From Chiloscyllium plagiosum (lineage: Eukaryota), in contig NC_057738.1 of NCBI RefSeq assembly GCF_004010195.1, positions 18,555,622 through 18,619,621 of the forward strand: a DNA stretch of 64,000 nucleotides. The letters run 5' to 3'. The notes below the pieces were generated by a model. It saw only the letters and a list, made by a program, of their open reading frames with translations, was not told where the DNA came from and searched no databases. This document shows, piece after piece, positions 3,539-64,000 of this stretch (the stretch's first letter is position 1; the number at the start of each line of letters is the position of its first letter). A program made the position numbers and the translations under genes.

Positions 3539-4190
3539 CAGCTGATAGCCAAGTTCGTTACCCATGAGGAATTCCTCAACTGGGACCTCAGGTTCATATC
3601 ACACTACAGGTGACCCCACTGCACCAAACACTCTCTCTCTGTCTCTCCCTCTCTCACTCACACACGCACACACATTAATCTATGGGAGAATTAGCATTTG
3701 TAAAATTTGTTTGCAGATACATTCTATTTTGCTCAAAAAGCACACAATCTACAGGCAGTCAATGCAGGCAGTCAATCCATGTGACATTTTATAAATTCCT
3801 ATTTTGGAAATAGAACCAGTCTGACTCAAGATTGGGATACAGATAGACTCTAACCTCACAATATTAATGCATTGTCTGAGCTGAGATGTTACTTTTTTTT
3901 ATATAAAACCTTAAGTTATCTCAAGAATGTGACTTAAAAGAAGTTCTGGGATTTAGATATTAATGAACTGAAACTTGCAACCCATTCTAAAAGATGAAAG
4001 ACTTAACAGCAATCTAGGTTTGTTCAATATATCATTTCAGTTGCATGACATTATGATCTTTTGCGATAAATTCTGTGTCTTATGATCCTGCTCCACAGCT
4101 ACCTGATGAAGGAGCAGAGCTCTGAAAGCTAGTATTTCCAAATAAACCTGTTGGACTATAACCTGGTGTTGTGTGATCTTTAACCTTTGA
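3539..4190 (+). mobile_element. Penelope-like element 3' fragment (GIY-YIG C-terminus, 3' region, hammerhead)
   Basis: 3542-3613 reads LIAKFVTHEEFLNWDLRFISHYR*, like the PLE ORF end (FxT..GLN.D.GF), followed by a CT/CA microsatellite and a terminal hammerhead motif with AATAAA. Confidence 0.75.
4100..4134 (+). ncRNA. Minimal type I hammerhead ribozyme motif (family A)
   Basis: TAC-CTGATGA-AGGAGCAGAGCTCT-GAAA-GCTA-GTA: both core boxes intact, stem II GAGC/GCTC, palindromic AGCT helix III, stem I TAC/GTA. Confidence 0.75.
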
Positions 4191-5264
4191 AAATTGAGAT
4201 GACTGGTTTTCTGAGGTGGATAATATTACTGATCCATTTTTGAGGCAATTATCGTCACTCTGTTTGTGACTTCTGAAATCCATAGAAATTTGACACTTAC
4301 ATTTGCAAAGAAAGGATACACTTAGAACCTTAATCAAAGTAGCTACAGGTTAGAACAAAGTGTCACAGAAGATGGAAGGTCACGAAGAGATGGAAAATGT
4401 TTGTGTGAAATATATCGATTCACTACTTAAAATAGTTTGACACTAACAGGCTCCCCATTGTCCATCAATTATGTAAAAGAACGAGGAAAAGTAGTGCAAC
4501 TGAGTGATGGAGAGTAGAAATAAATAATCATAGTGTCTTGCAGTGTGCATATAATGGACACTTGGTCAGGAAATATAGAGTGCTAACACTTACTGCTCCC
4601 ATTTCAATGTCTTATCATCCCAATCTTATTCATGTTTTTGTCAGTTACTCTGCTGTAAATCATGCCAAATATCAAATCAAGGAACATAGAAGGAAAGCTT
4701 GCTTTTATGTAGGGCCCTCCACATCCTCATAATGCGAGAAAGAGAATCACAACTAATAAATTAATTTTTAAATACAATCATTGCTGTTGTATTTATGCAG
4801 CATCTTGAACATAGTAGAAACATTCCAAGATACATCATAGGGCATTTTCAGACTGAATTCGACAAGTGAGTTAGGTGAGATATTTGCCTAGTTCTTGGTT
4901 AAAATGGGACATGAGTGCCATTTAAAAACAACATACTCATCGTAATTCCCAGTGTCCTGACCTCATTTCTGAGATTTCCACTTTTCAAGAGTACCTTTTA
5001 TGATGGAATGGTCTGGTTTAGGCCATAAGCCAACATTCTGCACTGCTGAACAGACCAGGCCTGTAATATGGTTCAGCATGTCCTAGTCTTCTGCAAAAGT
5101 CTTGGAATTAAACCAGCTTACCAAGAACTCATCTGCATGAAGGACATCTTGAAAAGTATGTTCATGAGTTGCTCTTCTTGTCCCATCGGACCAAGCTATG
5201 GGATTGACAGAGTGGACAAGAGAGGCAGAGCTGTAAATCAGCCAATTTGATTCATTGCATGTGA

Positions 5265-5830
5265 TACCACACCTGAAGTATTGTGCACAGTTTTGGTCCT
5301 CTTATTTGAGAAAAAATGTAGTGGCATTGGAGGCAGTTCAGACAAGTTTTACTTGATTGTTCCCTGAGATGAGAGGTTTGTCATATGAAGTGAGATTGAA
5401 CAGTGTAGGACTATTCTCTCTGGAATTTAGAAGAATGAAGGGAGATCAAATTGAGGTATTCAAGATGTTAAAAGGTAGGGATAAAATAGATGTGGAGCAG
5501 ATGCTTCCTCTGGTGGGCCACTCTAGGCTGAGTGGTTATAGTCTTAGGATAAGGGGAGCAAATTTCAAACAGAGTTGAGGAGAAACTATCTCTCTCAAAG
5601 GGTTGTGAATCTGTGGAATTTGCTATCCCAAAGTGCAGTGGAAGCTTGGACAGTGAGTAAATTAAAGAGGAGTTAGACAGATTTTTAATTGTTAATGGGT
5701 TGAAAGGATATGGAGAAAAGGCAGTAAACTGGGGTGAGGAACATATCAGCCATGATTGAATGGTGGTGCAGACCTGATAGGTCAAAAGGCCTAATTCTGC
5801 TCCTATTTCTTATGAACTTATGAACTTATA
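5265..5830 (+). mobile_element. CR1 3' fragment
   Basis: Peptide FPEMRGLSYEVRLNSVGLFSLEFRRMKGDQIEVFKML; (TTATGAAC)n tail. Confidence 0.9.
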
Positions 5831-5834
5831 TCAA

Positions 5835-6436: not shown

Positions 6437-7657
6437 TGTTATGGACTGACTTTGGGCAAGTTTCTCCAAGTTGTTGCGGTTCCAGACAGATGTCTCAAAG
6501 CACTAAACTACCAGAAGAGGAGGGATGAACAGGTTCCCCTTCTGTATTCACCCACCCCCTTCTATTGGTCAAACAAAGTTAATTTGAAAAGCGGTCCTCG
6601 CTAATGGATACCTTTCTCACAGAACAAATTAATTTCTATTTTAGCAAGGAACACACTCTTGAGTTATCAGATGAAGTCTATTTGTTACTAAATGCAAAAA
6701 TAAATAATGATACAACACACATGCACACAGAAATAAGAATTGAGTCCAAAAAAGGATGATAGAAATTAAAAGATGTATGTATTAAATTCTCTGAGTGGAT
6801 TGTGAAGAGTCAATAGCAGATCATTAATAGTAGAAAAATCAATTTCAAGATTTTTGGTTTTGCAGTTAATTAAAATTCTTTTGCCCTATGTACTTTTTGT
6901 GATTGTTGTCAGGCAGCATTCAAAGTGAGAGAGGGCTTTGTGTTGCCCTGTTGCCTTTTCAATGGATTGATATAAGTTGGCTTCTTGCATTCAGAATGAG
7001 AAAGCCCTTTTGCCTGCAGTGTCTGGGTGACTAGTGGATGATTCTTCAACTGTGACATTCACAAAACATTAGTGTTCAAACCCATACTAGTACACACAAA
7101 TGCCTTCATTCACCAGAATGCCTTTTTCCATTAATACATTTCCTTCTCTTACCATACACTCAACAGATTTGCTGTCAGTTTTAACCTTTTTTTGGACATT
7201 GGGAATGCAAATTGCAAAAAAAAATCCCTAACAGATAGCTTTCTGCTAGGGAAGAAAATCAGACAGTTATGATCTCTTCCTGTCATGTCTTAGTCTCTGT
7301 TTGAACTTTACTGAAAAATGTGTTGCTGGAAATGCGCAGCAGGTCAGGCAGCATCAAAGGAGATGAAGGGCTTATGCCCGAAATGTTGATTCTCCTGCTC
7401 CTTTGATGCTGCCTGACCTGCTGCGCTTTCGCTTTTCCAGCAACACATTTTTAAGCTCTGATCTCCAGCATCTGCAGTCCTCACTTTTTCCTCTGTTTGA
7501 ACTTTCCCTAATACACTACAGGTGTGACATTCCTGACAGCATTGAATTTACATACGTAGTCTTTTCTTTGTCTGGAACAGTCCCCTTTAAAAAACAAATT
7601 TTGGAATTAAAAGTTAATGTCCATCCTACTTTAGGGCTCTGATCATTCATTGTGGCA
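6437..7657. mobile_element. Candidate solo LTR
   Basis: Starts TGTTATGG and ends GTGGCA; cleanly interrupts the LINE (GATGCACAGG | ATAAGAACACC); TSD only degenerate. Confidence 0.5.
7310..7490. mobile_element. PLE-derived fold-back element (family B) with 15-bp TSD
   Basis: Inverted arms ~7315-7362 / ~7398-7451 around GATGAAGGGCTTATGCCCGAAATGTTG; exact direct repeat CTCTGTTTGAACTTT at 7295-7309 and 7491-7505. Confidence 0.85.
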
Positions 7658-7845: not shown

Positions 7846-7919
7846 TATTTTCCTTTGGACACAGAAGGTTCATCACTCTAGTCGATGCCTTGGCTCGCTT
7901 CCATACTGAGGCTTGGTTT

Positions 7920-8040
7920 GGAGGAGCCAGTTTTGGACTGGGGTGGACAATGTTAAATATCACACAACACCAGGTGACAGTCCAACAGGTTTATTTGGAA
8001 GCACTGGCTTTTGGAGCACTGCTCCTTCATTAGGTGGTTT
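7920..8040 (-). mobile_element. PLE end (family A) with decayed hammerhead
   Basis: Reverse complement reads CAC-CTAATGA-AGGAGCAGTGCTCC-AAAAGCCAGTG...AATAAACCTGTTGGAC, homologous to 4100-4190. Confidence 0.75.
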
Positions 8041-10812: not shown

Positions 10813-10957
10813 TGAATAATTACACAGGAGGTCTGAGTGCAAACTCTGCAAGGACCAACATTATTTTTTGTGGCAGCCTGTTACAATATAAAGATAAAGT
10901 TGTCGAGGTATAAATTTTTATAGTCCCCTGCAAAACACTTCTAAACCACAAATTAAT

Positions 10958-11303
10958 CACGGAATCCCTACAGTGTGGAAGTAGACCATTGAATCCATAA
11001 CGACCCTCTGAAGAGCATCCCATCCAGACCTACATCCCTAACCTATCCCTGTATCCCTCCGTTTCCCATGGTTAATCCATATAACCTAAGCATCCTGGAC
11101 ACTGTGGTCAATTTAGCATCACCAATCCACCTGACCTGCACATCTTTGGACTGTGAGAGGAAACCGGAGCACCCGGAGGAAACCTATGTAGACATGGGGA
11201 GAATGTGCAAACTCCACACAGACAGTCGCCCGAAGCTGGAATCAAACCCGGATCCCTAATGCTGTGAAGCAGCAGTGCTAACCACTGAGCCACAATACTG
11301 CTC
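10958..11303 (-). mobile_element. HE1-type SINE
   Basis: tRNA-like head (GTGGCTCAGTGGTTAGCACTGCTG...GGTTTGATTCC), body GTCTGTGTGGAGTTTGCACATTCTCCCC, CR1-like tail. Confidence 0.9.
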
Positions 11304-11344
11304 CGGCCCACTCCCCTATATATACCAACTCGAACCATTTATAT

Positions 11345-11536
11345 CAATCCAAAGATGTGCAAGTTAGGTGAATTGGCCATGCTAAATTGCCCATAGTGTT
11401 CAGGGATGTGTAGGTTAGATGCGTTAGTCAGGGGTAAATGTAGCAGAATGGGTTTAGGTGGGTGGGCGGGATACTCTTTGGAAGGTCGGTATGGACTTGT
11501 TGGGCCAAACAGCCTATTTCCATACTGGGGATTCTA
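11345..11536 (+). mobile_element. HE1-type SINE, 3' half
   Basis: CAATCCAAAGATGTGCAAGTTAGGTGAATTGGCCATGCTAAATTGCCC...GGATTCTA. Confidence 0.85.
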
Positions 11537-12028
11537 AGGATATCTTTCGAACTGTTAATCACTTATCCATATATATCAATAAATTATTCACTATTGCAAT
11601 TTAAATAATGAGAATGTCACATTAAAATCAGGGCAGTTAGGCTTCCTCCAATCAGGTTTGTGTTGTGCACTATATACTGTAAACTGGAGTAAATATAAAT
11701 CATCCCTTTAATAAATTCCTTAGCTGTTTTACAGTGGCTTATTTCATATCTACATGTATCAAGCTCTATAAAACTCACCAATTATCAAAATATTTCATCT
11801 GAAGACACATCCAAAACAATCCATTACCTGATACCAAATACCTGTTAATGCCATTGCTGTGCTTACAATAACTTGTGTTTTATACAGCTGTTAACATACC
11901 AAAACCCCTCATGGTGCTGCACAAGTATTATCAAATAAAATTTGACAAGGCTCACATTAAGAGCGATTATAGCAGAGGAAGTGATTTAGAGAGTTGCAGA
12001 GGCATTTGAAGGATATTCTAAAGTTTGG

Positions 12029-12855: not shown

Positions 12856-13269
12856 AAGAGCCCAAGCAGCTGAAGGCACAGCCATCAATGGTGGAACAAT
12901 TAAAATAAGACAGCTCTCAAGACATCAGAATTAGCAGACAGCAGCTATCACAGAAGTTTGTGGGGCTGGAAGGGATTAACAGATGTATGGAAATGTAAGG
13001 CCAAGCAAGGATATCAATTCAGAGATTAAACACTTCCAGATCGAGATGTTGCATAAGCAGGAACAAACATATCATCAGCAAACATAGGGACAAATGGGGG
13101 AACAGAAATTGGAGTAAGTTCAGATTCTTGCAGCAGAGCATTGGATAATCTCAGGTTTATGAAAGATACAACATTGGAACTCAACCAGGAATGGACTGGA
13201 ATAATCAAATCTATACAGGAATGGATAAGTGCTTCAGCAGCAGAATTGAGGCAAGTTAAAGTTTGACCA

Positions 13270-13400
13270 TCAGAAATTGCTGGAAAAGCTCAGTGTCTGT
13301 CTCAATTCAAGTTCTGAGGAAGGGTCACTCAGTTTGAAATGTTAACTTTAACTTCTCTCCACAGATACTGTTTCTGATTTACAGTATCCGCAGTTCTTTT
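13270..13400 (+). mobile_element. Short PLE-end-like element with hammerhead-like core (family C)
   Basis: AGTT-CTGAGGA-AGGGTCACTCAGTTT-GAAA-TGTT-AACT at 13310-13347; ends GATTTACAGTATCCGCAGTT, like family B termini. Confidence 0.55.
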
Positions 13401-16300: not shown

Positions 16301-16327
16301 GGCACAGTAGATAGCTGCGTTATGTAC

Positions 16328-16649
16328 TTAGATTAGATTAGATTCCCTACGGTCAGGAAACAAGCACTTTGGCCCAACAAGTCCACACCGACCTTCCAAA
16401 GAGCAACCTACCCAGACCCATTTCCCTCTGACTAATATCCCTGAACACAATAGGCAATTTAGAATGGCCAATTCACCTGGCCTGCACATTTTTGGACTGT
16501 GGGAGGAAACTGGAACACCTGGAGGAAACCCACGCAGACACGGGGAAAATGTGCAAACTCCACACAGACAGTCGCCCGAGGCTGGAATCGAACCTGGGAT
16601 CCTGGTGCTGTGAAGCAGTAGTGCTAACCACTGAGCCACCGCGCCGCCC
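16328..16649 (-). mobile_element. HE1-type SINE, well preserved
   Basis: Complete head GGGCGGCGCGGTGGCTCAGTGG, B-box GGTTCGATTCC, (TCTAA)n tail. Confidence 0.93.
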
Positions 16650-17039
16650 AATGGGTTCTACAATGGGACTCAGAAGTCTGGTGCCCATTGAGGCACAGTG
16701 GGCACCAAACACTCACAAAGATTTTGGCTGTAAAGAAAACAAAGCTCTTGACCTGGATCAAGGATAGAGGATGGATTTAGAAGCTGACTACAATCTGGGT
16801 GCAGACTGCAAGTAAGACTGAAGGTGTTTGCTACACTCTTTTTCCATTTTTCTGGCAAATTTCAAGATGCTGGAGGTGTTATTGCAGGACTCATGCAATC
16901 CAAAAATATTGTGCCAATTATTTGTTCTTTCCAAACCCAGAGAGCAGCAACACAAAAAAAAATGTTAGATTGGTGAGAACTGTACTCTTACAAGCTTCTC
17001 TGTATTCTCTTATTCACCCTGTGATAATCTGTGGATTTT

Positions 17040-17622
17040 TTGAGTGTAGGAGTTGGGAAGTCATGCTGAGGTTGTACAGGACATTGAGGAGGCCTTCTCT
17101 GGAACACTGCGCCCAGTTTAGGTTGCCCAAGAATATTAGGAAGGATATTATTAAGTGGAGAGGGAACAAAAGAGATTTACCAGGCTGTTGCCAAGTATGG
17201 AAGGTTTAAGTTATAAAAGAAAAGGCTGGATAACCTGGGGACCTTTTTCACTGTAGCACAGGAGGTTGAGAGGCAACCTGATAGAAGATAATAAAATAAT
17301 GAGGGGTCTAGATAGAGTTAACAGTGGTTGTCTTTTCCCTAGAATGGTGGATTTCAAGACTAGGGGGGCACATTTTTAAGGTGAGAGAGGTTTAACAAAG
17401 ACCTGGGGGCACATTCTTTGCACAGAGGGTGGTTCACTTGTGGAATAAACTTCCTGGGGAAGTGATAAATGTGGGTATAATTACAACTTTAAAAGGTATT
17501 TGGAATAGGAAAGATTTGGAAGGAGATGGGCCAGGAGTAGGCAGGTGGGACTACTTTAGTTTGGAATTATGTTCAGCAGGTTGGAGCGTAAGGTCTGTTT
17601 CCATGCCGTATGACTCTATGAC
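17040..17622 (+). mobile_element. CR1 3' fragment
   Basis: ECRSWEVMLRLYRTL...VHLWNKLPGEV; TATGACTCTATGAC tail. Confidence 0.9.
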
Positions 17623-18944
17623 AGTATGTCTAGTTCTATTTCACAGTCTGAAGATACTCAGACAGTATGGGAATTGCAAAATATTGGAATATGTATTTTT
17701 GTGTTGCTGTGGTCATTGGGAGTTGTACAAGAGAAGCTTTAGGATCAGGCCTCAGCTTCATAAGGTCTGATCCACATCTTTTAAATATCAAGAATGATGT
17801 ATCAGTGAATCTATTAGAAGTGATCCACTGAAAATGAACCAAGCCTTATTCAAATATTACAATGATCTATAAATTCCACCATGCAATTCTCTAACTTAAC
17901 AGGCCACAACTGTGCTCTTCACGATACTAGCAATGGATAGACAGAGCTATCCTGTATGCCTGAAGCGGGTATTTGATCTTTGGTATAAATCATAAGCTCT
18001 ATTGCCTGCTTGAGGTCCCTCTCCAACACTACATTGCTCAAAAAATGAACAACCATGAATTTGTCAGTCAATATAGTTAAACAAAGCCTTGTTTTGCTTG
18101 TAGTCTCACTCGATCCAGATCATGCTTGTCAGGGTTACATTTGAAATTCTCATAAATGTGAGAGTGCTTAAACAGTCAAAACCCATTAGCTATTATTTAT
18201 TCCAATTTTACAACATGGTATTTTTGGTGTTTAAGCTGTTGGTGTTTTAAAATATACTGATGTGGAATGTACACCAGCCAAACTGTTGGCTAATTTGTGG
18301 GAACGTAGCATGTTATTGGAACATTCTTTGAAACAGGAAGACCTGAACAGAATATAAGACTTGCCAGAGTGGTCTAATGCTACAAACTTGGACCAGTTTG
18401 GAAGCAACAAGACCTTTATATAAGGTGTCTAAGGGTGAGCAGTGAGTCATATTACAATTGATGATGTAGATCAAATGTGAATGTGAAATAAAAAAAACAA
18501 GGCAAAGTTTTCCCCTCCAAGGATGTGGTGAGAAAGAAATATGAGAAAGGAAAATAATTGAGTGATTTAGCTCTGGAGAGATCCTCACCCACTTTGCGCC
18601 ACCTCATCAATGAAGTGCTTGGTAAGGAGGCACTTTTGACACTCAGCTCACTAGCTATTAAAGTCCCTAAGTGGTCAATTAACAATTAGCTAAGAGCTTC
18701 AACTCACCACCATCCCAATCCTGGCAGGCAAAAAAAGTGACTGGTTCCCCCAATGGGTGACTGTCGTGTTACCGTTCATTGTCAGTATACCTTGAAGGAC
18801 CATGCCCATGATATCATTACTGTAACAAACCTTTAAAATCTCATTTAATATATTAACTGGAATAATTTGTAGCATAATGTGCTAATGGAAGAATCCTGCA
18901 TTTTGCAACCTAATAACTTTCTATGACCTCAAACACTCATGTGT

Positions 18945-19133
18945 CACAGTGCCATAAGATGTACAGCATGGAAACAGACCCTTCGGTCCAACCCGTCCAT
19001 GCCGACCAGATATCCCAACCCAGTCTAGTCCCACCTGCCAGCATCCAGCCCATATCTCTCCAAACCCTTCCTATTCATATACCCATCCAAATGACTCTTA
19101 AATGTTGCAATTGTACCAGCCTCCACCACATTC
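18945..19133 (-). mobile_element. CR1 3' end
   Basis: Near reverse complement of 20655-20840 (VVEAGTIATFK...GRWD). Confidence 0.9.
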
Positions 19134-19840
19134 TTTGGCTTGTGAATCTTTTGTTTGTATATTTCGTGAGCTGCCTTAAATGTTTGTTGGATTCTTAAAT
19201 ACCACATTATCCATGCTTAACTAAGACTCCATGCTAAGACTCCAAAATCTTTCTGGCAGATATTTAGAAAACTAATTGAAGACTAATTGGATGACAGCCA
19301 TCAATGAATTCAGACAACAGTAGCATTAGCTTCAATGCAGCCAGCCATACAGATCTCTAGATAGGCCTTTAACTAAACAGAAAGATGGCTAGATTTTAAA
19401 CAAAGGAAAAATTATAACTCCTGTAAGACGTAAGAAAGCTCTGAGTCCCTTTTTTATCAAATAAAAAGGCTGAAGTTACCAATACAATACCAGACAAATT
19501 TTTGTGTCTTTTTCTTTAGGAATGAGAGTCAGCAGATCTTGACATCATAGTTACAAAATACAGTTTTTAAATAACCAAAAAAAAAGTTTGCTACACTCAG
19601 AGGGCTTAGCTATTTCCTGGTATTTGTTAATGCCAACATTTTCTTTCTTTAAATTGGCAAAAAAATCAAAACAATGCCTCATGATGTCATCACTCCTTAT
19701 TTGGTGCAAATGCAATCGCGAAGCAGAAATCTGCAACTGTAAGCTTGCAATTCTTAAAGTACAAGTTGACAGTTCTTAAACTAACATCCTCAAAGGGCCC
19801 AAGACAGGAAAGGAATGGCAACAGGGAACAAAGGGAAACA

Positions 19841-20951: not shown

Positions 20952-21153
20952 TCATGATTCGGAGATGCTGGTGTTGGACTGGGGTGTACAAAGTTAAAAA
21001 TCACACAACACCAGGTTATAGTCCAACAGGTTTAATTGGAAGCACTAGTTTTCAGAGCGTTGCTCCTTCATCAGGTGGTTGTGACAACTGAAAGCGAGTG
21101 CTTCCAATTAAACCTGTTGGACTATAACCTGGTGTTGTGTGATTTTTAACTTT
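20952..21153. mobile_element. PLE-derived fold-back element (family A) with hammerhead
   Basis: Arms ~20990-21054 and ~21088-21153 are near-perfect inverted repeats; minus strand 21043-21077 reads CAC-CTGATGA-AGGAGCAACGCTCT-GAAA-ACTA-GTG. Confidence 0.85.
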
Positions 21154-21379
21154 ATTGCAAATAGAAGTGGAAAGCAAATGGTTAATTATGGACTGGGCAT
21201 TCATTGGCTGCAGGGAAAGTTTTTACATGGTGCAAAAATGGTCAACCAAGTAAAGGCAAAATTTTGGAGATGAACAAGCTTCCCATATTATTATCGATAT
21301 TGATAAGGTGAACAGAATGTTTGTTGACCATTAATAGTATGTGCTAACAGTGGAATGTGCTTGAATACCCACTGGAAGC

Positions 21380-24443: not shown

Positions 24444-24802
24444 GAATGATTATTGCCATATCCAATTAACCCTCAACAATCTGGTTCAGAAATATCATTT
24501 TTAAGTCTAACACTACATGCTCACAAACAGTTTTTCCATTTTGGAATCTGATGAGGGCATAGCTTCATCAAAGAAGTGCAGTCAGAGTTTGCGGCATCAC
24601 AAGCAGCTCCATAGATCAGGAGGAGAGGAAGAAGAATGGGAGAACAATAGGAAGAAGGGATTTATTAATTAGGAGAACAGACAGGCATTTCTGGGCTGTA
24701 GACCTGATTCTACGTTAGAAATCTAGTGCTAGGGTCAAGGATGTCACAGTGTGGCTGCAGAGCATTCTTCTGGGGAAGGGTGAACAGCTAAAGGTCGTGA
24801 TT

Positions 24803-25100
24803 AGAGTGATGCTGGAAAGGCACAGCCGGTCAGGCAGCATCTGAGGAACAGGAAAATTGGCGTTTCCGGCAGGAGCCCTTCATCAGGAAGCTTTGTGGGT
24901 GGAGAGATAAATGGAAGGGGTGGGGCTGGGGAGAAGGTAGCTGGGAGTGCAATAGATGGATAGAGGAAGGGGGTAAAGGTGAAGCTCGGAGAGGAGGGTG
25001 GAGCGGATAAGTGGGAAGGAAGATTGACAGGTGAGACAGGTCATGAAGATGGTGCTGAGCTGAAAGTTTGGAACTGGGGTAAGGTCGGAGAGGGGAAATG
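24803..25100 (-). mobile_element. PLE 3' fragment (family B) with hammerhead motif
   Basis: Homologous to 62815-63125; minus strand reads CTGATGA-AGGGCTCCTGCCG-GAAA-CGCC (24859-24886). Confidence 0.8.
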
Positions 25101-26131: not shown

Positions 26132-26350
26132 CCATGATGTGGAGATGCCAGTGTTGGACTGGGATGGACAAAATCAGAAGTCACACAGCACAAGGTTTTA
26201 GCCCAACAGGTTTATTTGAAATCACAAGCTTTCGGAGTGCAGTCCCTTCATCAGGTGAAGTCACCTGACAAAGGGAGCAGCGCTCTAAAAGCTTGTGATT
26301 TCAAATAAACCTGTTGGACTAAAACCTGGTGTCATGTGACTTCTGATTGT
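26132..26350. mobile_element. PLE-derived fold-back element (family A) with two back-to-back hammerhead motifs
   Basis: Symmetry centre at 26259-26260; minus 26222-26258 TCAC-CTGATGA-AGGGACTGCACTCC-GAAA-GCTT-GTGA; plus 26261-26298 is a decayed copy. Confidence 0.85.
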
Positions 26351-26923
26351 GTTTAAAGTTAACAAGGCGTCAGGACTAGATCGGATGCATCCAAGGATTT
26401 TGGCGGAAGTAGACATTATAGGGACACTGATCATTATATTTCAGTTTTTCTGACCTTCAGGGGAGGTGCTAGAAGACTACACAATTGCAGACACCACACC
26501 CTTGTTCTGAACAATGTTGCAAGGTTAAGCCCAGTAATTACAGACCAGACAGTTTAACTTTAATGATGGGACCACCCTATAAAGAGTTATTCAGATGGTC
26601 TATAATCATGTCAAAAAGGTTGGGTTGAATAGGAAGTGCCAAAATAGATTTCTAAATAAGAATTCATGCTTGACTAATTTGCTGAATTTTTCGAACAAAA
26701 TAACTGGAAGGATGTATGAGGGCAATGCTATTGATGTGATAAACTTCCAATCAGCATCTGGTACAATGCCACACAATGGACATGTGAGAAAAAAACATAA
26801 TTTATGAATAAAAGGGTCAGTAGCAAAATGGATACAACATTGCTTGAGGGATAGGAAATGGGGATTAATTAGCAATAGATTTTTTTCGGGGGCTTGAGGA
26901 ATGTTTGTCATAGATTTCCCCAG

Positions 26924-27919: not shown

Positions 27920-28333
27920 CCAGAGTTCAGTATTGGGACCCTTGCTTTTCCCTGTATATATAAATAAATTTTCTAGTTCTTTAAACTTGTAGGTGTGAAT
28001 AATAAGGGGAGAGTCCTTCAGACTGCTTGAACCTCAGGTTTTATTCATCTCCAATATGTATGCAACCACACAGAGTAGAGCAAATAAGACTTGGATATTA
28101 CAGGCTTAGATTGCCATGGGGAAATATGATGTTGTGACAACACCGAAGACATGGCTTGGGATGATACAAAACTTTGAAGCATTGTAATCTATGAAGAGGA
28201 TAGTGTAAGACTTCAGTAGTACATAGACAAGCTGGTGGGATCAGCAGATTGTTGGCACATAAATTTAAATGTGAAGAAATGTGAGGGGATGCATTTTGAA
28301 AGAAAGATCAGGGACAGACAATAAAATAAGAGG

Positions 28334-28481
28334 AGTTCAGGCAGCATCCAAGGAGCTTCGAAATCGACATGCCCGAAACGTCGATTTCGAAGCTCCTTAG
28401 ATGCTGCCTGAACTGCTGTGCTCTTCCAGAACCACTAATCCAGGATCTGGTTTCCAGCATCTGCAGTCATTGTTTTTACCT
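28334..28481. mobile_element. PLE-derived fold-back element (family B) with 14-bp TSD
   Basis: Arms AGTTCAGGCAGCATCCAAGGAGCTTCGAAATCGAC / GTCGATTTCGAAGCTCCTTAGATGCTGCCTGAACT; AATAAAATAAGAGG at 28320-28333 and 28482-28495. Confidence 0.85.
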
Positions 28482-37604: not shown

Positions 37605-37830
37605 CACACTTACCAACCGGATTCATTCCTCCTATTAACCAATCAGATCATATCCTCTACCTGGCTTCACCTATCCCTACTTCACCACCCTCCCTCCCCC
37701 ATCCCCTTTATCTGCACCTCCCTTTACAACCACCCCCAATCCTGAAGGAAGGTCCCAAAATGTTGACTTCTCTACCTCCTGATACTGTCTGGCTTGCATG
37801 TTCTTCCAGCCTCCTCTGTATATTGTTGTT
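37605..37830 (+). mobile_element. Decayed PLE 3' end
   Basis: Pyrimidine-rich tract similar to the antisense of 24900-25050, then eroded core CCTGAAGGAAGGTCCCAAAATGTTGAC and TTCTTCCAGC terminus. Confidence 0.55.
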
Positions 37831-40349: not shown

Positions 40350-40420
40350 CCAGAGTCTGATGAAAGGTCTGAACCTGAAATATTAGCCTGTCCTTTTCTG
40401 CTTTTAAATACTGCCATTGG
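40350..40420 (+). ncRNA. Isolated hammerhead-like core in a short decayed element
   Basis: CTGATGA-A-AGGT-CTGA-ACCT-GAAA-TATT at 40357-40384; perfect 4-bp stem II. Confidence 0.45.
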
Positions 40421-49301: not shown

Positions 49302-49605
49302 ATAGATTAGATTACCTACAATGTTATCTAGCATTCGGCCCAACCAGTCTACACTGACCCTCCAAAGAGAAACCCACTTCCCTCTGACTGATGCACCTAA
49401 TACTACAGGCAATTTAGCATGGCCAATTCACCTGACCTGCACATCTTTGGACTGTGGGAGGAAACCGGAGCACCCGGAGAAAAACCATGCAGACACAGGG
49501 AGAATGTGCAAACTCTACACAGAGGGTTGCCCAAGGCTGGAATTGAACCTGGGACTTTGATGCTGTGAGGCAGCAGTGCGAACCATTAGGTCACCGTGCC
49601 ACCCC
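49302..49605 (-). mobile_element. HE1-type SINE nested in CR1
   Basis: SINE body between the CR1 GNY and YRPVSLT codons. Confidence 0.9.
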
Positions 49606-51764
49606 AATAATTTCCCATCTTCTGTCTACCTCCTTTTTTAAACAGCAGCATCACATTTGCTGTTTTCCAATCTGCTGGAACTGCCCAGAGGCCAGTGAAT
49701 TTTGGGAAATTACCACCAGTCACCTGCTATTTCTCCTGCCATCTCTTTTAGTACTCTGGGATGCATTCCATCAGGTCCAGGCGACTTATCAATCCTTAGC
49801 TCCATTAGCATGCCCAACTCTACTTCTTCCGTAATACTGATTATTTCCACGTCCTCACCTACCTTTGTCTCTTTGTCAATTACTGGCATATTATTATCAT
49901 CCTCCACTGTGAAGACCGATGCAAAATACCTGTTCAATGCCTCAGCCATTTCATCATATCCCATAACTAAATTCCTCTTCTCATCCTCTAAAGGGCCAAT
50001 GTTTACTTCAGCCACTCTTTTCTGTTTTATATATTTATAGAAACTTTTGCTATCTGTCTTTATATCTGTCTATCTGTCTAAGCTAGTTTTTTCTCGTGTT
50101 CTATCTTACTTTGCTTTATAGCTCTTTTAGTGGCTTTCTGTTGACCTTTAAAGTTTTCCCAATCTTCCAGTTTCACACTGTTTTTGGCCACTTTATATGC
50201 CTTCTCTTTCAGTTTGATAGCTTCCATTATTTCCTTAGACACCCATGGCAGATTACCCCTTTTCTTACAGTCCTTCCTTTTCACTGGAATATACTTTTGC
50301 TGAACACTTTGAAAAATTGCTTTGAAAGTCCTCCACAGTTCATCAATTGTTCCACCATAAATCTTTGTTTCACCAAGTCCTCCCTCATTCTATTGTAGTC
50401 TCCCTTGTTTAAGCACAGGTCTCTGGAATTGGATTTTATCTTCACACTCTGCAGCTGTATTCTAAATTCAACCATACTGTGATCACTCCTTCCAAGAGGA
50501 TCCCTAACTATGAGGTCATTAATTATTCCTGTCTCGTTACACAGGACCAGATCTAGGATAGCTTGCTCCCTCGCCGTTTCCATTACATACTGTTCAAGAA
50601 AACTATCACGGATACACTCAACGAACTCCTCCTCAAGGCTACCCTGACTGAGCTGGTTTGATGAATCTACATGTAAATTAAAATCCCCAATGACAATTGC
50701 TGTACCATTTTTACCAATTAGTCATTTCTTTGCTTATTGCCTGCCCAGCGTGGTGTTATTATTTGGTAGCCTATAGACTGCACTTATTAGTGACCTTTTC
50801 CTTTTTGAATTCATAATCTTCATCCAAATGGATTCAACCTCATTCTCCATAGAACCTATATCATCTCTCAGCACTGCCCTGATGTTGTCCTTGAACATCA
50901 GAACTACACCACCTCCCTTACCTTACTGTCTGTCCTTCCGAATAGTCCAATATCCCGGATATTTAACTCCTAGTCATGATCATTCTGTAACTATATCTCA
51001 GTAATGGTTACTAAATCATATTCATTCACAATGATTTGTGCTATTAACTCATCAACCTTGTTATGAACACTACGAGCATTCAGGTAAAGTGCCTTTACAT
51101 GAACTTTCTTGCCATCATGATTTACAACATCTCTAATAATATCTCCTGAGTTATCCTTCCTTTTTGCCTCTTTCATTGTCTGCTTTGAACTTAAATCCCC
51201 CCCTGCACGCATGCTAACCTGCTGTTTACCTTTTTATTTACCATCATGCTTCCTGTCACTTCCCCTTTCCCTTCCACCCGACTCACTGGAACACCAGGTC
51301 TACAGAGGAAGAGCATTTGAGGAACCTGGAAGAAATTCTATAATGGCTGCAAGCACATAAGTTATGAGTAAAAAAGGAAAAATTGAATTTTTGTTCCAGA
51401 ACTGGCCTGAATATTTATGATCCATCATTGACAGCAAGTGGCTTCACAAGGCACCAAAGAAAATAAAGAGAATCATGGGATTGTCAGGTCTATTTTTGGT
51501 TACAGACTTTGGATGCCCACATCTAAGAGCCAAAATAAAAAAAATTGTCACTGTTACACACCTGGGGGATGACCCAAGACACCATGGCAACCTGTCCAGG
51601 TTGTTGTACCAGATGCTCTGAGGGTCAAATTCTGCTGGTGGTAGTTGATGCTCATCCTGAGTGACTTCAGGTAGCAGAAATGAGCACCAAGAAACGAGAG
51701 AAGATATTTCTAAGGTTCAGTAACCTTGAGCAGGTTGTCCATGACAACAGTTCCCAGTTATCCA

Positions 51765-54365: not shown

Positions 54366-55499
54366 TTTGATCTTATTGTTTTCTTAAATCGGATGCTACA
54401 AAGCTCAACTTTAATGACTAGTTTGAAGTAGGTTGCACAAAATTTACTTCAAATTGAATGAGCTGTCCTTGGAGGTGCAACAGGCTCCATTAACCATACT
54501 TAGCTTTCAAACATACACTTTTATTGTGCAAGTCCCCAGATAGCAATCAGGCAGACATTTTCCCTCCTGTGTTGCGAGAACACTACGTTCATTTGTGGAG
54601 CCTTTACCTCTGGTCCCTTCTGTGTTCTGTTAACATAGTCTTCACCAGTAACTGAACCAAGGATCAGACTGTTTGGTAACACATGATAGCTAACAAAATA
54701 AATTCACTGAGCCTCAGGGGGAGCACTTGTATTTATCTTAATCCCTAAATATTTGATACACCTCCTAGCTATTTGAAAGAATTAACCTAATAAAGAATGA
54801 GGGAAAACATCATTTTCTTACCCAAGAGCTTTGGTCTTTCTCCAATTAATTTTACAATCTGCCAACGGCCTGAAGTTAATCATTATCTCCGAGTGATAGT
54901 GATTTAAACTGTAATTGATTGCAAATGAAGAAGAGAGTATCACATAGATTACGTTGCCAACATATTATGACATTGCACCACTCTCGTTCTATAGACTAAT
55001 ACTAATCATTGCTTCAAAAGCAACTCTGAGAAACATGGGAAATCAATACAAATGACCCTGTCCTATTTAATAAAAAAACTTCGACAGAATCCCATCGGCC
55101 ATGAACTTTTCTGGAAGGGTAATCAGTTACGTGACTGCACTTTAGTTTGAGTGCATTATGCAAAAAGACCCATGCTCAAATGTATCCATAATCATCTGAA
55201 GATAGTTTCTACTCTACCATTTTAAGGTATTCTCTGCAGGCCATCCCACAAGACATCATAGAGAGATACATTATTATTGTACATACTCTGCAAATATTAA
55301 ATAGTAAATCTCACTTAATCTTAATTCACAATTATCCAGTTGAGCTCTTCATCTCTGAAAAAAGGTCTCCACTAAGATTTCTCAACCTATTTATTTATTT
55401 GGATGCATTTGTAACTTCTGAGATAGTTTTGCTTCTTTAATAAAATTATATTTATCATTCTTTTCTGAAAAGGTGCACCAAGAATGAAATCCCCAGTTT

Positions 55500-55825
55500 C
55501 ATAGAATCCCAACAGTTTGGAAGCAGACCATTTGGCCCACATTGATGTCTGAAGAGCATCCCACCCAGACCCACCTCCCTACTCTACCTCTGCAACCCTA
55601 CATTCCCCACAGCTAATCCATCTTGTCTGGTCATCCCTGAACACTATGGGAAATTTAGCAATAATAATCCACCTGCACATCTTTAGAGTGTGGGAGGAAA
55701 CCAGAGCAAACCCACACAGACAGAGGGAAAGCATACAAACTCAACACAGACAGTTGCCCAAGGATAAAATCGAACCTGGGTCCTTGGTGCTGTGAGGTAG
55801 CAGTGCTGAGCCACTGTGCTGCCCC
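55500..55825 (-). mobile_element. HE1-type SINE
   Basis: Diverged reverse copy with head and tail. Confidence 0.88.
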
Positions 55826-56339
55826 AAACCATACCCGCCACAATTGTGTCTGTAATTCTATGGATTTTGTAAAGGGTAAATACAGTTTTATCTGTAACAC
55901 TGGGAACTCCCAAGCACCTGTAACTTCAATTCAAAATGGATCAAACCATGCACCTGATCAAAAGTTACCCACTCACAGAAGCAGACTCCCCGGGGAGACC
56001 AGGGCAAGATTGTACCCTGGACACCCTGGTCCACTCTCTCAAACATTTAGAAAAATGTTTTCAACATACAGGTCTGGGAGTCTGTGGATTCTGAGATTGA
56101 CATTTCCACGTTATTCTTAGGGAAGAGCTGCAGGGTTGGTAATGATGTTCCTAAAAAAAGCATATCCTTGCATTCAGACAGGGATATTCTGCAAATAACT
56201 ACAATCTGGAGAAAGAATACAAGTCACTGGTCACCCCTTAACATGTATCGCTGGTCTTCTTCCTTTCATAATATAATATTTTCTTCTAACTTATGACTTA
56301 TTCATTGGAAAGGAAAGAAGGGAGAACGGAAATAAAAAG

Positions 56340-58010: not shown

Positions 58011-58583
58011 CATGATGTGGAAGTGCCAGTGTTGGACTGGGGTGAGCAAAGTTAAAAATCACACAAACGCCAGGTTATAGTCCAACAGGCTTAACTGGAA
58101 GCACTAGCTTTCAGAGCGCTGCTCCTTCATCAGTTAGCTAGTGGGGCAGGATCACAGGACAATTGTGTGTCCACTAGTTACCTGACAAAGGAGCAGTGCT
58201 CCAAGGGCTTGTACTTCCAAATAAACCTGTTGGACTATAATCTGGTGTCGTGTGATTTTAACTTTGGTATAGAATGTCATTGGAAAGAGGGCCTCTTAAT
58301 CCTCAGCTGGCTTTCCTTCATGGTGCCAATCAAGGTCAAATGGATCACATTTTGATAATCTGATGAGTTAATGAAGTTCAGTCTTAAAAACCTCTCTGCC
58401 AAGGAATGTTTTACCACATCAGCAGGACAAATGAGCTGGTATGGAGAGGAACCTGGAGTGTCACTGGTGGGAACCTGAGATGCCAGTGAAGGAATTACAG
58501 GCATACCAGGTGGGCTGGAGATGAGTCCATTCCAAATAAACCTGTTGGGCTCTAACCTGGTGTTGTGTAATTTTTAACTTTAT
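58011..58583. mobile_element. PLE-derived fold-back element (family A) with extra arm copy
   Basis: Arms ~58048-58145 / ~58171-58265; minus 58102-58136 has an intact core CTGATGA-AGGAGCAGCGCTCT-GAAA-GCTA-GTG; third arm 58530-58581. Confidence 0.8.
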
Positions 58584-58689
58584 CCTGAAGTATGACACTC
58601 TTGAAGTGTTAAATTTGAAAGCTATCATGAAATCAGCTTTAACTCACCTAAATAAGTTGATTAACAATGTCTACAATCAGAGAGAATAT

Positions 58690-59220: not shown

Positions 59221-59425
59221 ATTAGTCAAGGGTGGAGACCCCACCCATCTTAAAAGAAATGTATTTGCTATCGGGACAACATTTCCCAAATTGATACCAG
59301 AATAGCCAATAACATCATCCACCCGAGCCACTAGAAGATCTAAATTTAAAGACTGTGTATGCAATGCAATGCGTATGCAGAGAGACTGATGACAGTGTGA
59401 TGAGCTAGATTTAATGCATGGTTTT

Positions 59426-59779
59426 CATAGAATTCCTGTAGTGTGGAAAGAGGCCATTCAGCCCATCAAGTCCACACTGACCATCCAACAGCATCCCACT
59501 CAGATCTAGCCCCTAACCTATCTGTGTAACCCTGCAATTACCATGGCTAACTCACCTAGCCTGCACATCCCTGGACACTACAGACAATTTAGGATGGCCA
59601 ATCTACCTAACTTGCACATCTTTGGACCCTGGGAGGAAACCAGAGCACCCAGAGGAAACACATGTAGACGCAGGGTGAACTTGCAAACTCCGCACAGACA
59701 GTCCACTTGAGAGTGGAATTGAATCAGAATCCCTGGTGCTATGAGGCAACAGTGCTAACCACTGAGCCATCATGTCACT
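59426..59779 (-). mobile_element. HE1-type SINE
   Basis: Full-length reverse copy. Confidence 0.9.
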
Positions 59780-61284: not shown

Positions 61285-62078
61285 TATCACAGAATCTCAG
61301 TTATTATCATGTAAAAAGAGGACATTCCTTCCATTATGACCACATTGGCCCTACTACCTAGTACCAATCTTCTACTTTATCCCCACATCCCTGAACATCA
61401 TTACCATCCAAATAACAATCCAATGTGCACTTGAATACCTCAATTGGAATCTGGATCCATCACAGTTTCAAGCAATGCATTTCACACATTAATAATGCAC
61501 GGCATTAAAACGTTTTTTTTTCACATCGCCTCTGCTTTCTTTGCACATCATTTCAAATCTGTGGTCTCTTCTTCATGTTTCACCTGATCTACTTTGTCTA
61601 GCTTCCACATAATTTTGAAAACTTTAGTCAGATCGGTACAGTTGCTCAGTGGTTAGCACTGCCGCCTCACAGCACCAGGAGCTGTGTTTGATTCCAGCGT
61701 CAGGCAACTGTCTGTATGGAGTTTATACATTCTCCCCGCATCTGCGTGAGTTTCCTCCGGGTGCTCTGGTTTCCTCCCACAATCCAAAGATGTGCAGATT
61801 AGGTGAATTGGCCAAGCTAAATTGCCCATAGTGTTCAGGGATGTGTTGGTTAGGTGCATTAATCACAGAAATTGTAGAGTAATAGGATAGGGAATGGGTC
61901 TGGGTGGGATAGTCTTCGCAGAGCCAGTGTGGACTTGTTGGGCCAAATGGCCTGTTTCCACACTGAAGTGATTCTATGATCTCCTCTCAGCCTTCTTCGC
62001 TCCAGGGAAAACAGCCCCAACTTCTTTCATCTATCCTCATAAATAAAGTTTCTCATACTTTCAACCATTCTAGTAAAT
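61285..62078 (-). mobile_element. Old CR1 3' fragment split by a SINE
   Basis: CR1 antisense motifs (CAGCCTTCTTCGCTCCAGGGAAAACAGCCCCAA; TTTTTTCACATCGCC) on both sides of the SINE. Confidence 0.7.
61635..61980 (+). mobile_element. HE1-type SINE
   Basis: Head GTTGCTCAGTGGTTAGCACTGCCGCCTCACAG; tail GATTCTATGAT. Confidence 0.9.
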
Positions 62079-62644
62079 TGAAAAAAAAAATCCCAAAACA
62101 AATCCCTGGTACAGTGTCCAAAACAGAGTAGAGTACCCAAAACACCATTTCTACACTAATCACCCCAAGTTTCTGTATCTAACACCTTGCTAGGTTTAAG
62201 TCATTTGTCACTTTAGTTTATGAACTGTGTAGAGCTGTTTCCTGAAGCTACTAGGCACCCAAGTATAAATGTACACAGCTTTAAGTATTCTCTTCAGCGT
62301 TCATACCAACACTTCTGATCTGGGATTAACATTAACTCTTTACTCCAAGGTAAACTAGTTTCTCTATAACCTTCTCTTCCCAGGTGTATACAGTCAACTT
62401 TATCCAAGGACTTCACAGGACTGCTCAAAATTCAAAGTAAGACCAAATTTAAAAGAAAACGCTCAAAGCTGTCAGTGTTTCCTTTAATCTTTAAAGAAGT
62501 GTTCTAGAAATCCCTAAAGTAAAACTCTGACACCCCGTTATTTAACTTTATGATCACAAAACAATAAAGTAAAAATAAATCCAGAAGTGGTTCACAAAAA
62601 CTCAGAAATTCTAAAGCTAAGCCTTAAAAACTGTTTTAAAGGAT

Positions 62645-62803
62645 ACATCTTTGTATCCTCTTTGACCATAGGTGATGTCCCAGGGGACTGGAGAATAACC
62701 AATGCTGTCCCATCACTTAAGAAGGGTAGCAGGGGTTGTCCAGGAAATTACAGGCCTGTGAGCCTCATGTCAGTGATAGGGAAATTATTGGACAAGATTC
62801 TCA
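62645..62803 (+). mobile_element. CR1 RT N-terminal fragment
   Basis: GDVPGDWRITNAVPSLKKG...PGNYRPVSLMSVIGKLLDKIL. Confidence 0.9.
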
Positions 62804-64000
62804 GGTTCTGGATTAGTGGTGCTGGAAGAGCACAGCAGTTCAGGCAGCATTCCAGAAGCAGTAAAATTGATGTTTCGGGCAAAAGCCCTTCATCAGGAAT
62901 ACAGGCAGAGTGCCTGAAGCGTGGAGAGATAAATGAGAGGAGGTGGGGCTTGGGAGAAAGTAGCATAGAGTACAATAGATGAGTGGGTGAGGGGATGAAG
63001 GTGATAGGTCAGGGAGGAGGATGCAGTGGATAGGTGGAAAAGAAGATAGGCAGGTAGGACAAGTCATGGGGACAGTGCTGAGCTGGAAGTTTGGAACTGG
63101 GGTGAGGTGGGGGAAGGGGAAATGAGGAAACTGTTGAAGTCCACATTGATGCCCTGGGGTTGAAGCCACACCGACCTGTGGCCCAACATTTCAATTCCCC
63201 CTCCCACTCTGCCGAGGACATGGAGATCCTGGGCCTCCTTCACNNNNNNNNNNNNNNNNNNNNNNNNNNNNNNNNNNNNNNNNNNNNNNNNNNNNNNNNN
63301 NNNNNNNNNNNNNNNNNNNNNNNNNNNNNNNNNNNNNNNNNNNNNNNNNNNNNNNNNNNNNNNNGTTCCTGCGGTGGCAGGGGAAAGTGCCAGGATGGGA
63401 GGGTGGGTGGTAGGGGCGCGTGGACCTGACCAGGTAGTCATGGAGGGAAGGGTCTTTGCAGAAGGCGGAAAGGGGTGGGGAGGGAAATATATCCCTGGTG
63501 GTGGGGTCTGTTTGGAGGTGGTGGAAATGTCGGTGGATGATTTGGTTTATGCTAAGGTTGGTAGGGTGGAAGGTGAGCACCAGGGGCGTTCAGTCCTTGT
63601 TACGATTGGAGGGGTTGGGTCTGAGGGCAGAGGTGCGGGATGTGGATGAGATGCGTTGGAGGGTATCTTTAACCACGTGAGAAGGGAAATTACAGTCTCT
63701 AAAGAAGGAGGCCATCTAGTGTGTTCTGTGGTGGAACTGGTCCGCCTGGGAGCCGATACGGCGGAGGCATAAGAATTGGGAATACGGGATGGCATTTTTG
63801 CAGGAGGTAACGTGGGAAGAGGTGCAATCCAGGTAGCTGTGGGAGTCAGTGGATTTGTAAAAAATGTCAGTGTCAAGTCGGTCGTCATTAATGGAGATGG
63901 AGAGGTCCAGGAAGGGGAGGGAGGTGTCAGAGATGCTCCAGGTAAATTTAAGGTCAGGGTGGAATGTATTGGTGAAGTTGATGAATTGCTCAACCTCCTT
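62804..64000 (-). mobile_element. Penelope-like retroelement (RT C-terminus, GIY-YIG, 3' end with family B hammerhead)
   Basis: LTFHPTNL...PPLSAF.KD.SL.DYLVRS...PGTFPCHRRN, LQPQGINVDF, HFNSPSHS; hammerhead CTGATGA-AGGGCTTTTGCCC-GAAA-CATC on the minus strand at 62869-62896; runs off the window end. Confidence 0.9.
63244..63363. other. Assembly gap
   Basis: Run of N. Confidence 0.99.

Follow-up and report, generated by a model that had tools for sequence, protein, structure and literature searches.

Minimal hammerhead motifs in Penelope-like element end repeats of Chiloscyllium plagiosum and a putative LTR-like layout

Minimal hammerhead ribozymes of the kind analysed here were already described in Penelope-like elements (PLEs) in 2014, so that the finding of such motifs is in itself ordinary. 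In the published descriptions, these ribozymes are of type I, have an extra base between positions 9 and 10.1, a G10.1–C11.1 pair and a palindromic 15.2–16.2, occur mostly as single dispersed copies with close pairs on opposite strands, and include a U3–A8 variant. The motifs that we analysed in a 64,000-nucleotide stretch of C. plagiosum DNA (the window) share these features and differ from the published cases compared in their shark host. Helix II has 4–5 bp and helix I 2–4 bp here, whereas the values given for Schistosoma are longer (7–8 and 4–5 bp).

The elements that carry the motifs resemble the EN+ PLEs of PMC8557442 in the order of RT and GIY-YIG. Families A and B also have the CX4CxxC linker, and further shared traits are truncation at the 5′ end, partial tandems, an adjacent inverted copy and a tail of 30–40 bp that only one arm carries. 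In the passages compared, that account has neither a poly(A) site in use just past the ribozyme nor a class of sharply defined 5′ ends. As in Anolis Poseidon PAc (PMC11167929), two candidate RT start sites bound the tail near the ORF start and the ribozyme is found uncut in RNA-seq. The PAc ORF starts within the ribozyme, however, whereas family A has its ATG behind the tail and the entire ribozyme inside the 5′ UTR. Non-LTR retrozymes (bioRxiv 10.64898/2026.07.22.740005) are likewise PLE-derived hammerhead repeats, and one 334-bp family B tandem elsewhere in the genome resembles them, but the window copies are not tandem repeats. In the Clec2 3′ UTR hammerhead, too, the ribozyme lies upstream of a poly(A) signal (PMC6765202).

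What is new here is a poly(A) site past the ribozyme in family A, seen in one RNA library, sharp 5′ starts of copies of families A, B and C after a TATA-like box, and an ORF start behind the tail, an arrangement that suggests a putative U3–R–U5. Retroviral LTRs have this U3–R–U5 order and give rise to strong-stop DNA. Like them, the PLE repeat combines a TATA-like element, a candidate start, a structured leader, a poly(A) signal and a GU-rich tract; unlike retroviruses, PLEs are not known to have a tRNA primer, integrase or gag, and prime on target DNA.

Identity of the motifs

Judged by their sequence, the window motifs are real: they are type I hammerheads of the minimal form and belong to the terminal repeats (pLTRs) of several PLE families. 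A sequence-only reading of this DNA had placed the motif at 15 sites in at least three families, and we inspected all 15 coordinates. Thirteen are clear pLTR pieces and one more is backed by BLAST; the site at 40357 is weak, and only three sites (4103+, 26254− and 58133−) have the core, the CG/GC palindrome and the NUH triplet all whole. In the remaining 12, the core, palindrome or helix I is altered, or the 5′ half is absent. Profile HMMs built from genomic copies matched 13 of the 15 sites at E < 0.01 and nothing in reversed DNA. In a window-only profile search, the best E value in the reversed control was 0.56, against E = 0.015 for an eroded pLTR at 37739..37811 (+) and E = 0.033 for a possible old B/C-like stub at 40356..40415 (+). 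The former had been called family C-like and is instead B-like, with BLAST matches to other loci (E = 4e-15); the latter has a core, a helix II of 4 bp, an ATAT palindrome and a helix I of 1 bp, and no BLAST support. The profile search also found pieces absent from the earlier list, at 21088+ and 58530+ and in the reverse arms 7320–7362, 13267–13301 and 28331–28370.

The reading of these motifs as minimal hammerheads of type I on PLE ends, their helix III being a palindrome, was borne out by a strict descriptor, by covariation and by the links to ORFs described below. The descriptor scan, proposed beforehand as a check, picked out two sites in the window (cores 4103+ and 26254−), whereas 200 dinucleotide-shuffled versions of the window yielded 0.03 on average and never more than 1; on 384 kb it gave 18 matches against 0–1 in 20 shuffles. 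The Rfam scan, also proposed as a check, did not reproduce the motif: covariance models run over the window returned no hammerhead family at E ≤ 5. The motif has no full helix III. Chance matches to a short consensus might be read from this Rfam result, from the 17 matches of a loose core pattern that also hits unrelated sites, and from the weakness of 40357. The shuffled and reversed controls, the fixed place of the motif in PLE ends and the covariation of its helices speak against chance, which we give practically no credence and rule out for all listed sites except 40357.

Comparison between families shows covariation in helices I and II. The set comprised 181 natural motifs chosen by their core only, and since these copies are related, the counts are not independent. 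In helix I, pair 2.1–1.1 was kept in 163/181 copies and pair 2.2–1.2 in 167/181, each with several pair types, while the third pair was kept in only 93/181; in helix II, the pairs 10.1–11.1 to 10.4–11.4 were kept in 172, 167, 165 and 158 of the 181, again with several pair types each. The extra base after A9 and the G10.1–C11.1 pair are present, and the helix III palindrome is AGCT in family A and ACGT in B, C and D. A U3–A8 core swap occurs in all six copies of subfamily C2 (genome-wide, 1,877 versus 8). In energy folding of monomers and dimers, the hammerhead fold was not the best structure for most copies. Conservation at non-CpG columns within families (core 0.88–1.00, flank 0.83–0.98) is biased, and we did not count it because the copies had been selected by their core.

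Element families and window sites

That families A and B are attached to PLE coding remnants was confirmed. At 3533..3613 (+) lies what is left of the C-terminal GIY-YIG region encoded by the ORF in family A, closed by a stop; in tblastn, 3533–3610 matches the C-terminal end of the endonuclease in other family A copies at 61–71% identity (E to 9e-9). The stretch 63424–64000 (−) is 87% identical to the family B ORF. The family B ORF (locus L184) encodes 725 aa with RT followed by GIY-YIG (RVT_1, E = 2.8e-6; GIY-YIG, E = 6.5e-4; both below the curated Pfam cut-offs), stands together with its pLTR, and has 2,213 relatives at E ≤ 1e-20, the best named ones in sharks and rays. Coding pieces in the window match it. 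In Pfam searches of seven short ORF pieces, RVT_1 was found in two and GIY-YIG in none; tblastn against a phage collection gave no match. A CX4CxxC linker lies between RT and EN in L184 and in the family A locus L032, and a CX2-5CxxC linker is a Neptune trait also present in Nematis (PMC8557442). Families A, B and C are probably Neptune-type and family D probably Poseidon-type EN+ PLEs, the criterion in A and B being the linker. Among 20 long-frame candidates, all contained N gaps and none was an intact full-length element. The pLTR stands in partial tandem at locus L182, inverted 5′-truncated pairs carry the tail on one arm, and the tail end of the family A 5′ pLTR directly abuts an ATG, the ORF start following the tail.

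Family A has a 5′-truncated Neptune-type PLE at 3541..4187 (+), which runs from the ORF end through the 3′ UTR and pLTR to a short 3′ end at 4187 (84.6% identity over 564 nt to L032). Its minimal hammerhead at 4100..4134 (+; core start 4103) passed the strict descriptor, with a helix II of 5 bp, helix III AGCT, a CUA triplet, a helix I of 3 bp and a predicted cut at 4131/4132. At 4141..4161 (+) follow AATAAA (4141–4146) and, at 4161, the position that corresponds to the poly(A) site of RNA reads on L032 and L182; a GU-rich tract comes next. Head-to-head family A pairs lie at 20955..21156 (minus core 21074 whole, its palindrome broken, with tail and ATTAAA; half motif in the plus arm), 26134..26355 (minus core 26254 passing the strict descriptor with a CUU triplet; plus core 26265 with G8A and G12A) and 58012..58270 (minus core 58133 whole, first helix I pair broken; plus core 58182 dead). 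A solo family A stub at 7918..8037 (−) starts a few nucleotides before the core (8033) and has three core changes, and an extra family A piece at 58530..58597 (+) starts just past the predicted cut site and has no hammerhead.

Family B forms head-to-head pairs at 7320..7483 (plus arm without C3/U4, palindrome decayed, tail present) and 28331..28477 (half motif only, by profile search). It also left a 3′ UTR with pLTR at 24796..25100 (−; core 24886, C11.1 and U16.1 changed) and a Neptune-type PLE at 62798..64000 (−), composed of the RT thumb region, an N gap, the 3′ UTR and a pLTR with core 62896, in which the palindrome and first helix I pair are decayed; this element continues beyond the window end, where a second copy follows in inverted orientation. 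Family C is represented by an eroded head-to-head pair at 1344..1459 (minus arm E = 3.7e-9, plus arm E = 0.03), with no whole hammerhead in either arm, and by a stub with a short inverted arm at 13267..13396 (core 13314+, helix II and palindrome damaged). Close pairs in the window are divergent head-to-head inversions on opposite strands, not tandem dimers, and the window holds no tandem units each with a hammerhead, as in a non-LTR retrozyme array.

Abundance, decay and activity of dispersed copies

Core-intact matches numbered 224,917 genome-wide, one per 16 kb, against 6,007 in the control, a surplus of about 219,000; the published counts, obtained with a different descriptor, are about 4,000 in coelacanth and 9,000 in Xenopus. 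In a sample of 100 arbitrary stretches totalling 961 kb, we found 205 remnants covering the core (1 per 4.7 kb) and 64 intact motifs (1 per 15 kb); an earlier estimate of roughly one motif per 5 kb therefore fits the remnants but not the intact motifs. Neighbouring pieces within 600 nt were divergent in 75 cases, convergent in 15 and on the same strand in 29. The CpG-type decay attributed to many copies was evident, with C11.1/G12 and the loop CG decaying like other CpG sites and 118 of 187 scored copies having lost the core, palindrome or NUH.

The sequence-only reading also implied a genome in which potentially self-cleaving RNA recurs at intervals of roughly 5 kb, many copies being probably dead. 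The motif identity holds, but this picture is overstated, as only 69/187 copies keep core, palindrome and NUH, and the window pairs stand on opposite strands. By their sequence, these inverted pairs would fold as long hairpins, not as double hammerheads. One could suppose that the dispersed motifs give the host a layer of active self-cleaving RNA, by which introns and UTRs are cut wherever they are transcribed. The surplus of core-intact motifs favours this, as do the palindromes of B, C and D, which are identical, so that any two such copies could pair. The 961-kb sample held 12 pairs of intact motifs on the same strand at most 4 kb apart, so that some dispersed copies could dimerise, and one 334-bp family B tandem (L110). 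Against it stand the losses and CpG decay just given, the inversion of the window pairs, and polyadenylated reads that span the site uncut with no end pile-up listed, in a 3′-end library blind to cleaved products. Published minimal hammerheads, moreover, showed no cleavage as monomers and weak cleavage as dimers (PMC4209133), and eight of nine Xenopus dimers did not cleave (bioRxiv 10.64898/2026.07.22.740005). We consider a host-level layer quite improbable. In PMC11167929, cleavage needed the element's own protein. The motif is likely to function only in RNA from an active element, as a dimer or with protein, and the scattered copies are accordingly likely to be inert passengers.

Poly(A) site, 5′ ends and the origin of short copies

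A used poly(A) site lies inside the end repeat of family A only, as seen in one 3′-end single-cell library, blind to cleaved products, with reads on L032 and L182. Family A RNA in this library is polyadenylated about 30 nt past the uncut predicted cut site, behind AATAAA or ATTAAA, and 1,457/3,516 and 650/2,944 placed reads have loose poly(A) ends. No genomic copy has an A-run at the poly(A) position; in 39,217 copies the native sequence continues there. One of the two hexamers is present in 33/40 family A copies; in families B, C and D, reading of the sequences found no AATAAA after the ribozyme.

The 5′ ends of short copies fall at most 10 nt before C3 in 15/23 copies of A, 47/90 of B and 10/13 of C (72/126 in total), and 11–45 nt before it in 2, 4 and 3 of these, respectively. 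Long copies of A, B and C have a TATA-like hexamer at −33 to −40, about 30 nt before this peak; in family B it is TTTATC or CTTATC, not a canonical TATA box. Family D, with a TATA box at −53, has no clear cluster (3/44 ends at 0–5 nt, 3 at 19–23 nt, the rest spread). By eye, a 3′-splice-site-like tract was present ahead of the core in C, C2 and old A but not in B or young A, and the stubs shared no upstream exon; we rejected splice sites as the general cause of the 5′ ends.

The window sites are very probably 5′-truncated, often head-to-head PLE end repeats whose minimal hammerheads likely work only on active-element RNA, with a promoter and an RT run-off as the presumed origin of the short copies. 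The pLTR would hold a TATA-type promoter from which RNA starts a few bases before the ribozyme. RT may start inside this RNA at two tail positions beside the start codon and copy about 100–130 nt to the RNA 5′ end, and the product may often be integrated, once to give solo stubs or on both target strands to give head-to-head pairs. For longer copies, either the template would have to be a read-through RNA or RT would have to jump to the matching 3′ end. Cleavage, if any, would take the poly(A) tail off the 3′ copy and release unit-length RNA. Published support for this scheme is drawn from PMC4209133, PMC11167929, PMC8557442 and PMC3846280.

The layout suggests a putative LTR-like U3–R–U5 order with strong-stop insertions. 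More specifically, and only tentatively, the pLTR may act like a retroviral LTR, with a TATA-containing U3, an R of about 65 nt from the start before the hammerhead to the poly(A) site 30 nt past the cut, and a GU-rich U5 reaching to the tail and start codon. RT would start at the tail, run off the 5′ end and jump to the 3′ R; failed jumps would leave strong-stop stubs, removal of the poly(A) tail by the ribozyme would work as a switch, and stubs of family A could provide host transcripts with mobile poly(A) sites. The published PLE model of cutting, circularising and reverse-transcribing round the circle leads to another account, which we regard as possible though doubtful: the ribozyme cuts a tandem precursor at both pLTRs, the unit is copied as a circle, and stalling or fold-back at helix I, or antisense self-priming, accounts for the sharp 5′ ends in place of a transcription start. 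The catalytic core kept in all families, with its compensatory 3–8 swap, is consistent with this, and so is the peak of 5′ ends, which in A, B and C coincides with the edge of helix I; antisense self-priming has been proposed (PMC3846280). Of the 27 family A copies holding the ORF start, moreover, no more than 4 have their end between −7 and +5, and 4 extend 98–315 nt upstream, across an intact ribozyme and on into the UTR before it. A transcription start better fits the TATA-like box ahead of the peak in A, B and C, and the same peak in solo stubs without an inverted arm (6/12 A, 23/65 B, 18/22 C). Nor do 5′ ends peak at the cut site (3/42 A, 5/144 B and 4/48 C at +26 to +37), and ribozyme mutations had no effect on insertion in vitro (PMC11167929).

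The rebuilding of PLE end repeats and the role of the hammerhead are under discussion (PMC2377424, PMC8557442), and this genome has the largest motif count among the published ones compared, with natural variants for testing. The mapped poly(A) site, the candidate start and the sharp class of short insertions make strand transfer through an R region directly testable. If the LTR-like reading is true, it would explain both hundreds of thousands of hammerhead-headed insertions and the regeneration of the pLTR.

Hammerhead motifs as end repeats of Penelope-like elements

With family HMMs built from genomic copies, we found 18 pieces of pLTR, the Penelope-like element (PLE) end repeat that carries a minimal type I hammerhead, in the window (nine of family A, six of B and three of C), while the same HMMs gave no piece in reversed window DNA. 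The pieces account for 13 of the 15 sites listed by the sequence-only reading. The site near 37741 is also a genuine, eroded copy, although B-like and not C-like as had been proposed, whereas support for the site at 40357 is weak. A strict hammerhead descriptor was satisfied at two window sites, 4103+ and 26254−, compared with 0.03 matches per shuffle, and core, palindrome and NUH are all whole at three listed sites. An Rfam search of the window, which that reading had suggested as a check, returned no hammerhead match.

The proposed attachment of families A and B to PLE coding remnants was borne out. Window 3533–3610 resembles the ORF end of other family A copies and continues through the UTR to the motif, and 63424–64000 is an 87% match to the family B ORF of another locus, L184, extending past the window into an inverted copy. 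The L184 ORF encodes 725 amino acids that include RT and GIY-YIG, joined by a CX4CxxC linker, both Pfam scores being below the cut-off; the family B protein has its closest named relatives among sharks and rays, and we accordingly regard the host as a cartilaginous fish. Family A copies have a sharp 3′ end in common and differ in where the 5′ end falls, and in the family A copy L182 the tail (the short 3′ end segment) of the 5′ pLTR stops at the ATG of the ORF. PLE coding remnants also lie upstream in long family C copies, and a Poseidon-type family D is present elsewhere in the genome. Young family D copies (L031:4916–6090, L284–L313) have end repeats that are 97–99% identical; copies of this family are far less truncated than those of A–C, and many have an opposite-strand partner 0.1–1.4 kb off. 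A short GIY-YIG-region piece in reverse orientation (window 63165–63243) adjoins an N gap (63244–63364) and represents an inversion or an assembly artefact.

The host assembly is 3.56 Gb, and LINE remnants are plentiful. Many in the window, which we take to be CR1-like, have RT and endonuclease matches (1–1340, 17040–17630, 18940–20850, 31000–32390, 41360–43060, 48130–48750 and 49700–50720). A presumably SINE-like repeat of ~340 bp occurs in at least nine places (10956–11540, 16334–16650, 29703–30040, 34585–34925, 35164–35511, 49303–49606, 55497–55826, 59423–59769 and 61634–61980), and a broken LINE-type RT of another family (22544–24188) has an RVT_1 match, with an ALKBH8_N match at its end.

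Anatomy, decay and pairing of the copies

Each motif consists, in order, of CUGANGA, one extra base, a helix II of 3–5 bp, GAAA, a two-base insert, the cleavage base and, after it, a helix I of 2–4 bp. The insert turns A15.1-N-N-U16.1 into a palindrome, AGCT in A and ACGT in B, C and D. Among 181 distinct natural motifs chosen by core alone, pairs 1 and 2 of helix I are kept in 163 and 167 and pairs 1–4 of helix II in 172, 167, 165 and 158. Several pair types occur at each of these positions, and the third helix I pair is kept in just 93; since the copies are related and were partly fetched by similarity, these counts reflect covariation at the family level, not independent events. All six copies of subfamily C2 carry a U3-A8 core swap, a pattern with 1,877 matches genome-wide versus 8 in the control; PMC4209133 describes this swap in Schistosoma too. 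The helix I and II covariation across families, together with this compensatory change, argues against the core being no better conserved across families than its flanks, the outcome named beforehand as damaging to the ribozyme reading. Cores of the C2 hammerheads (for example, L100:4825+ and L109:7016) lie 4–18 nt apart in six inverted pairs among the matches listed.

Genome-wide, the core pattern has 224,917 matches, whereas its reversed form has 6,007. A sample of 100 arbitrary stretches of 10 kb each, with 961,247 non-N bases in all, yielded 307 pLTR pieces, and none when its DNA was reversed. The core is included in 205 of them (1 per 4.7 kb) and the intact pattern in 64 (1 per 15 kb), so that the suggested density of about one motif per 5 kb stands for core-covering remnants but not for intact motifs. 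The CpG-type decay attributed to many copies was also seen: it falls on C11.1/G12 and the loop CG, and 69 of 187 scored copies retain core, palindrome and NUH.

Neighbouring pieces less than 600 nt apart in the same sample were divergent in 75 cases, convergent in 15 and on the same strand in 29. All close pairs in the window are divergent, and five of six give predicted hairpins of −79 to −139 kcal/mol and would be unable to make a double hammerhead in cis. Twelve same-strand pairs of intact motifs less than 4 kb apart, and a 334-bp family B tandem (L110:2145–2660), speak against full inertness of the copies. The tandem looks like a non-LTR retrozyme seed. It runs from a pLTR and tail through an ORF start fused to the 3′ UTR and on to a second pLTR, with both motifs intact.

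Copy ends and family A polyadenylation

We mapped 5′ ends in unbiased copies that retain the 5′ core half and for which a close long reference was available. Ends lay at most 10 nt before C3 in 15/23 A, 47/90 B and 10/13 C copies, 11–45 nt before it in 2, 4 and 3, and still further out in 6, 39 and 0, respectively; few lay near the predicted cut site. Long copies have TATA-like boxes: TATAAA at −38 to −40 in 28/49 of family A, TTTATC or CTTATC at −35 to −37 in 76/97 of B, TATAAA or CATAAA at −33 to −37 in 6/6 of C, and TATAAA at −53 in 6/8 of D. Rotifer element pLTRs reportedly have TATA and Inr motifs (PMC3846280), and the Penelope pLTR is reported to act as a promoter (PMC2377424). A start-site model is not favoured by family D, whose 5′ ends are scattered (3/44 at 0–5 nt and 3/44 at 19–23 nt), nor by family A ORF-start loci, where a boundary was found in 27/30, four within −7 to +5, four at −98 to −315 and most downstream (an N gap disturbed one boundary, a contig end another, and a third was misregistered). 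At L075, L196, L100 and L243, C/C2 sequence upstream of the core looks like a 3′ splice site, with a branch-like motif, a pyrimidine tract and an AG 2–4 nt before C3, reminiscent of the Drosophila Penelope intron; no such tract precedes the core in B or young A.

For RNA we used about 2% of a single-cell poly(A) run, X16. On the family A locus L032, loose poly(A) ends fell at 8059 (596/3,516 reads) and 8062 (861/3,516), 12–15 nt past AATAAA and 27–30 nt past the predicted cut. The younger L182 gave the same ends in 277 and 373 of 2,944 reads, from a read set that probably overlaps that of L032; its depth in the poly(A)-end orientation was 1,023–1,081 across the ribozyme, ~450 past the site and ~12 in the ORF. 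Many positions vary among the reads, which therefore come from several loci or subfamilies. None of the genomic copies searched had an A-run at this position, in a search that may skip simple repeats, and 39,217 have the native continuation. Of 40 family A copies, 23 carry the signal as AATAAA and 10 as ATTAAA. The X16 listing had no pile-up of read ends, a profile that is no test of cleavage because products of cleavage would either lack a tail or be of insufficient length; X17, from the same sample, gave 0 reads.

Models for copy formation

PLE RNA would begin just upstream of the ribozyme, and RT would run off that 5′ end, giving a product that would insert as a stub, either solo or head-to-head. 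Longer copies would come from read-through templates or from an RT jump to the 3′ repeat. A full LTR-like strand-transfer model, for which the retrovirus serves as comparison, seems to us rather unlikely. According to PMC11167929, PLE RT begins within the RNA at both tail ends, insertion involves extension of both target strands, and the ribozyme is helped by protein and not needed for insertion in vitro; PMC4209133 reports that minimal hammerhead monomers did not cleave. The genomes of a retrozyme study include one chondrichthyan (bioRxiv 10.64898/2026.07.22.740005). Among the search listings and text passages covered, mostly of freely available papers, we found no statement on a hammerhead in a shark PLE, a poly(A) signal within a pLTR or a model of the strong-stop type; supplements may contain chondrichthyan counts and more minimal hammerhead alignments. 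It is highly probable that the motifs are PLE end repeats with mostly inert copies, and we conclude that those in the window are a genuine feature, of an already known kind.
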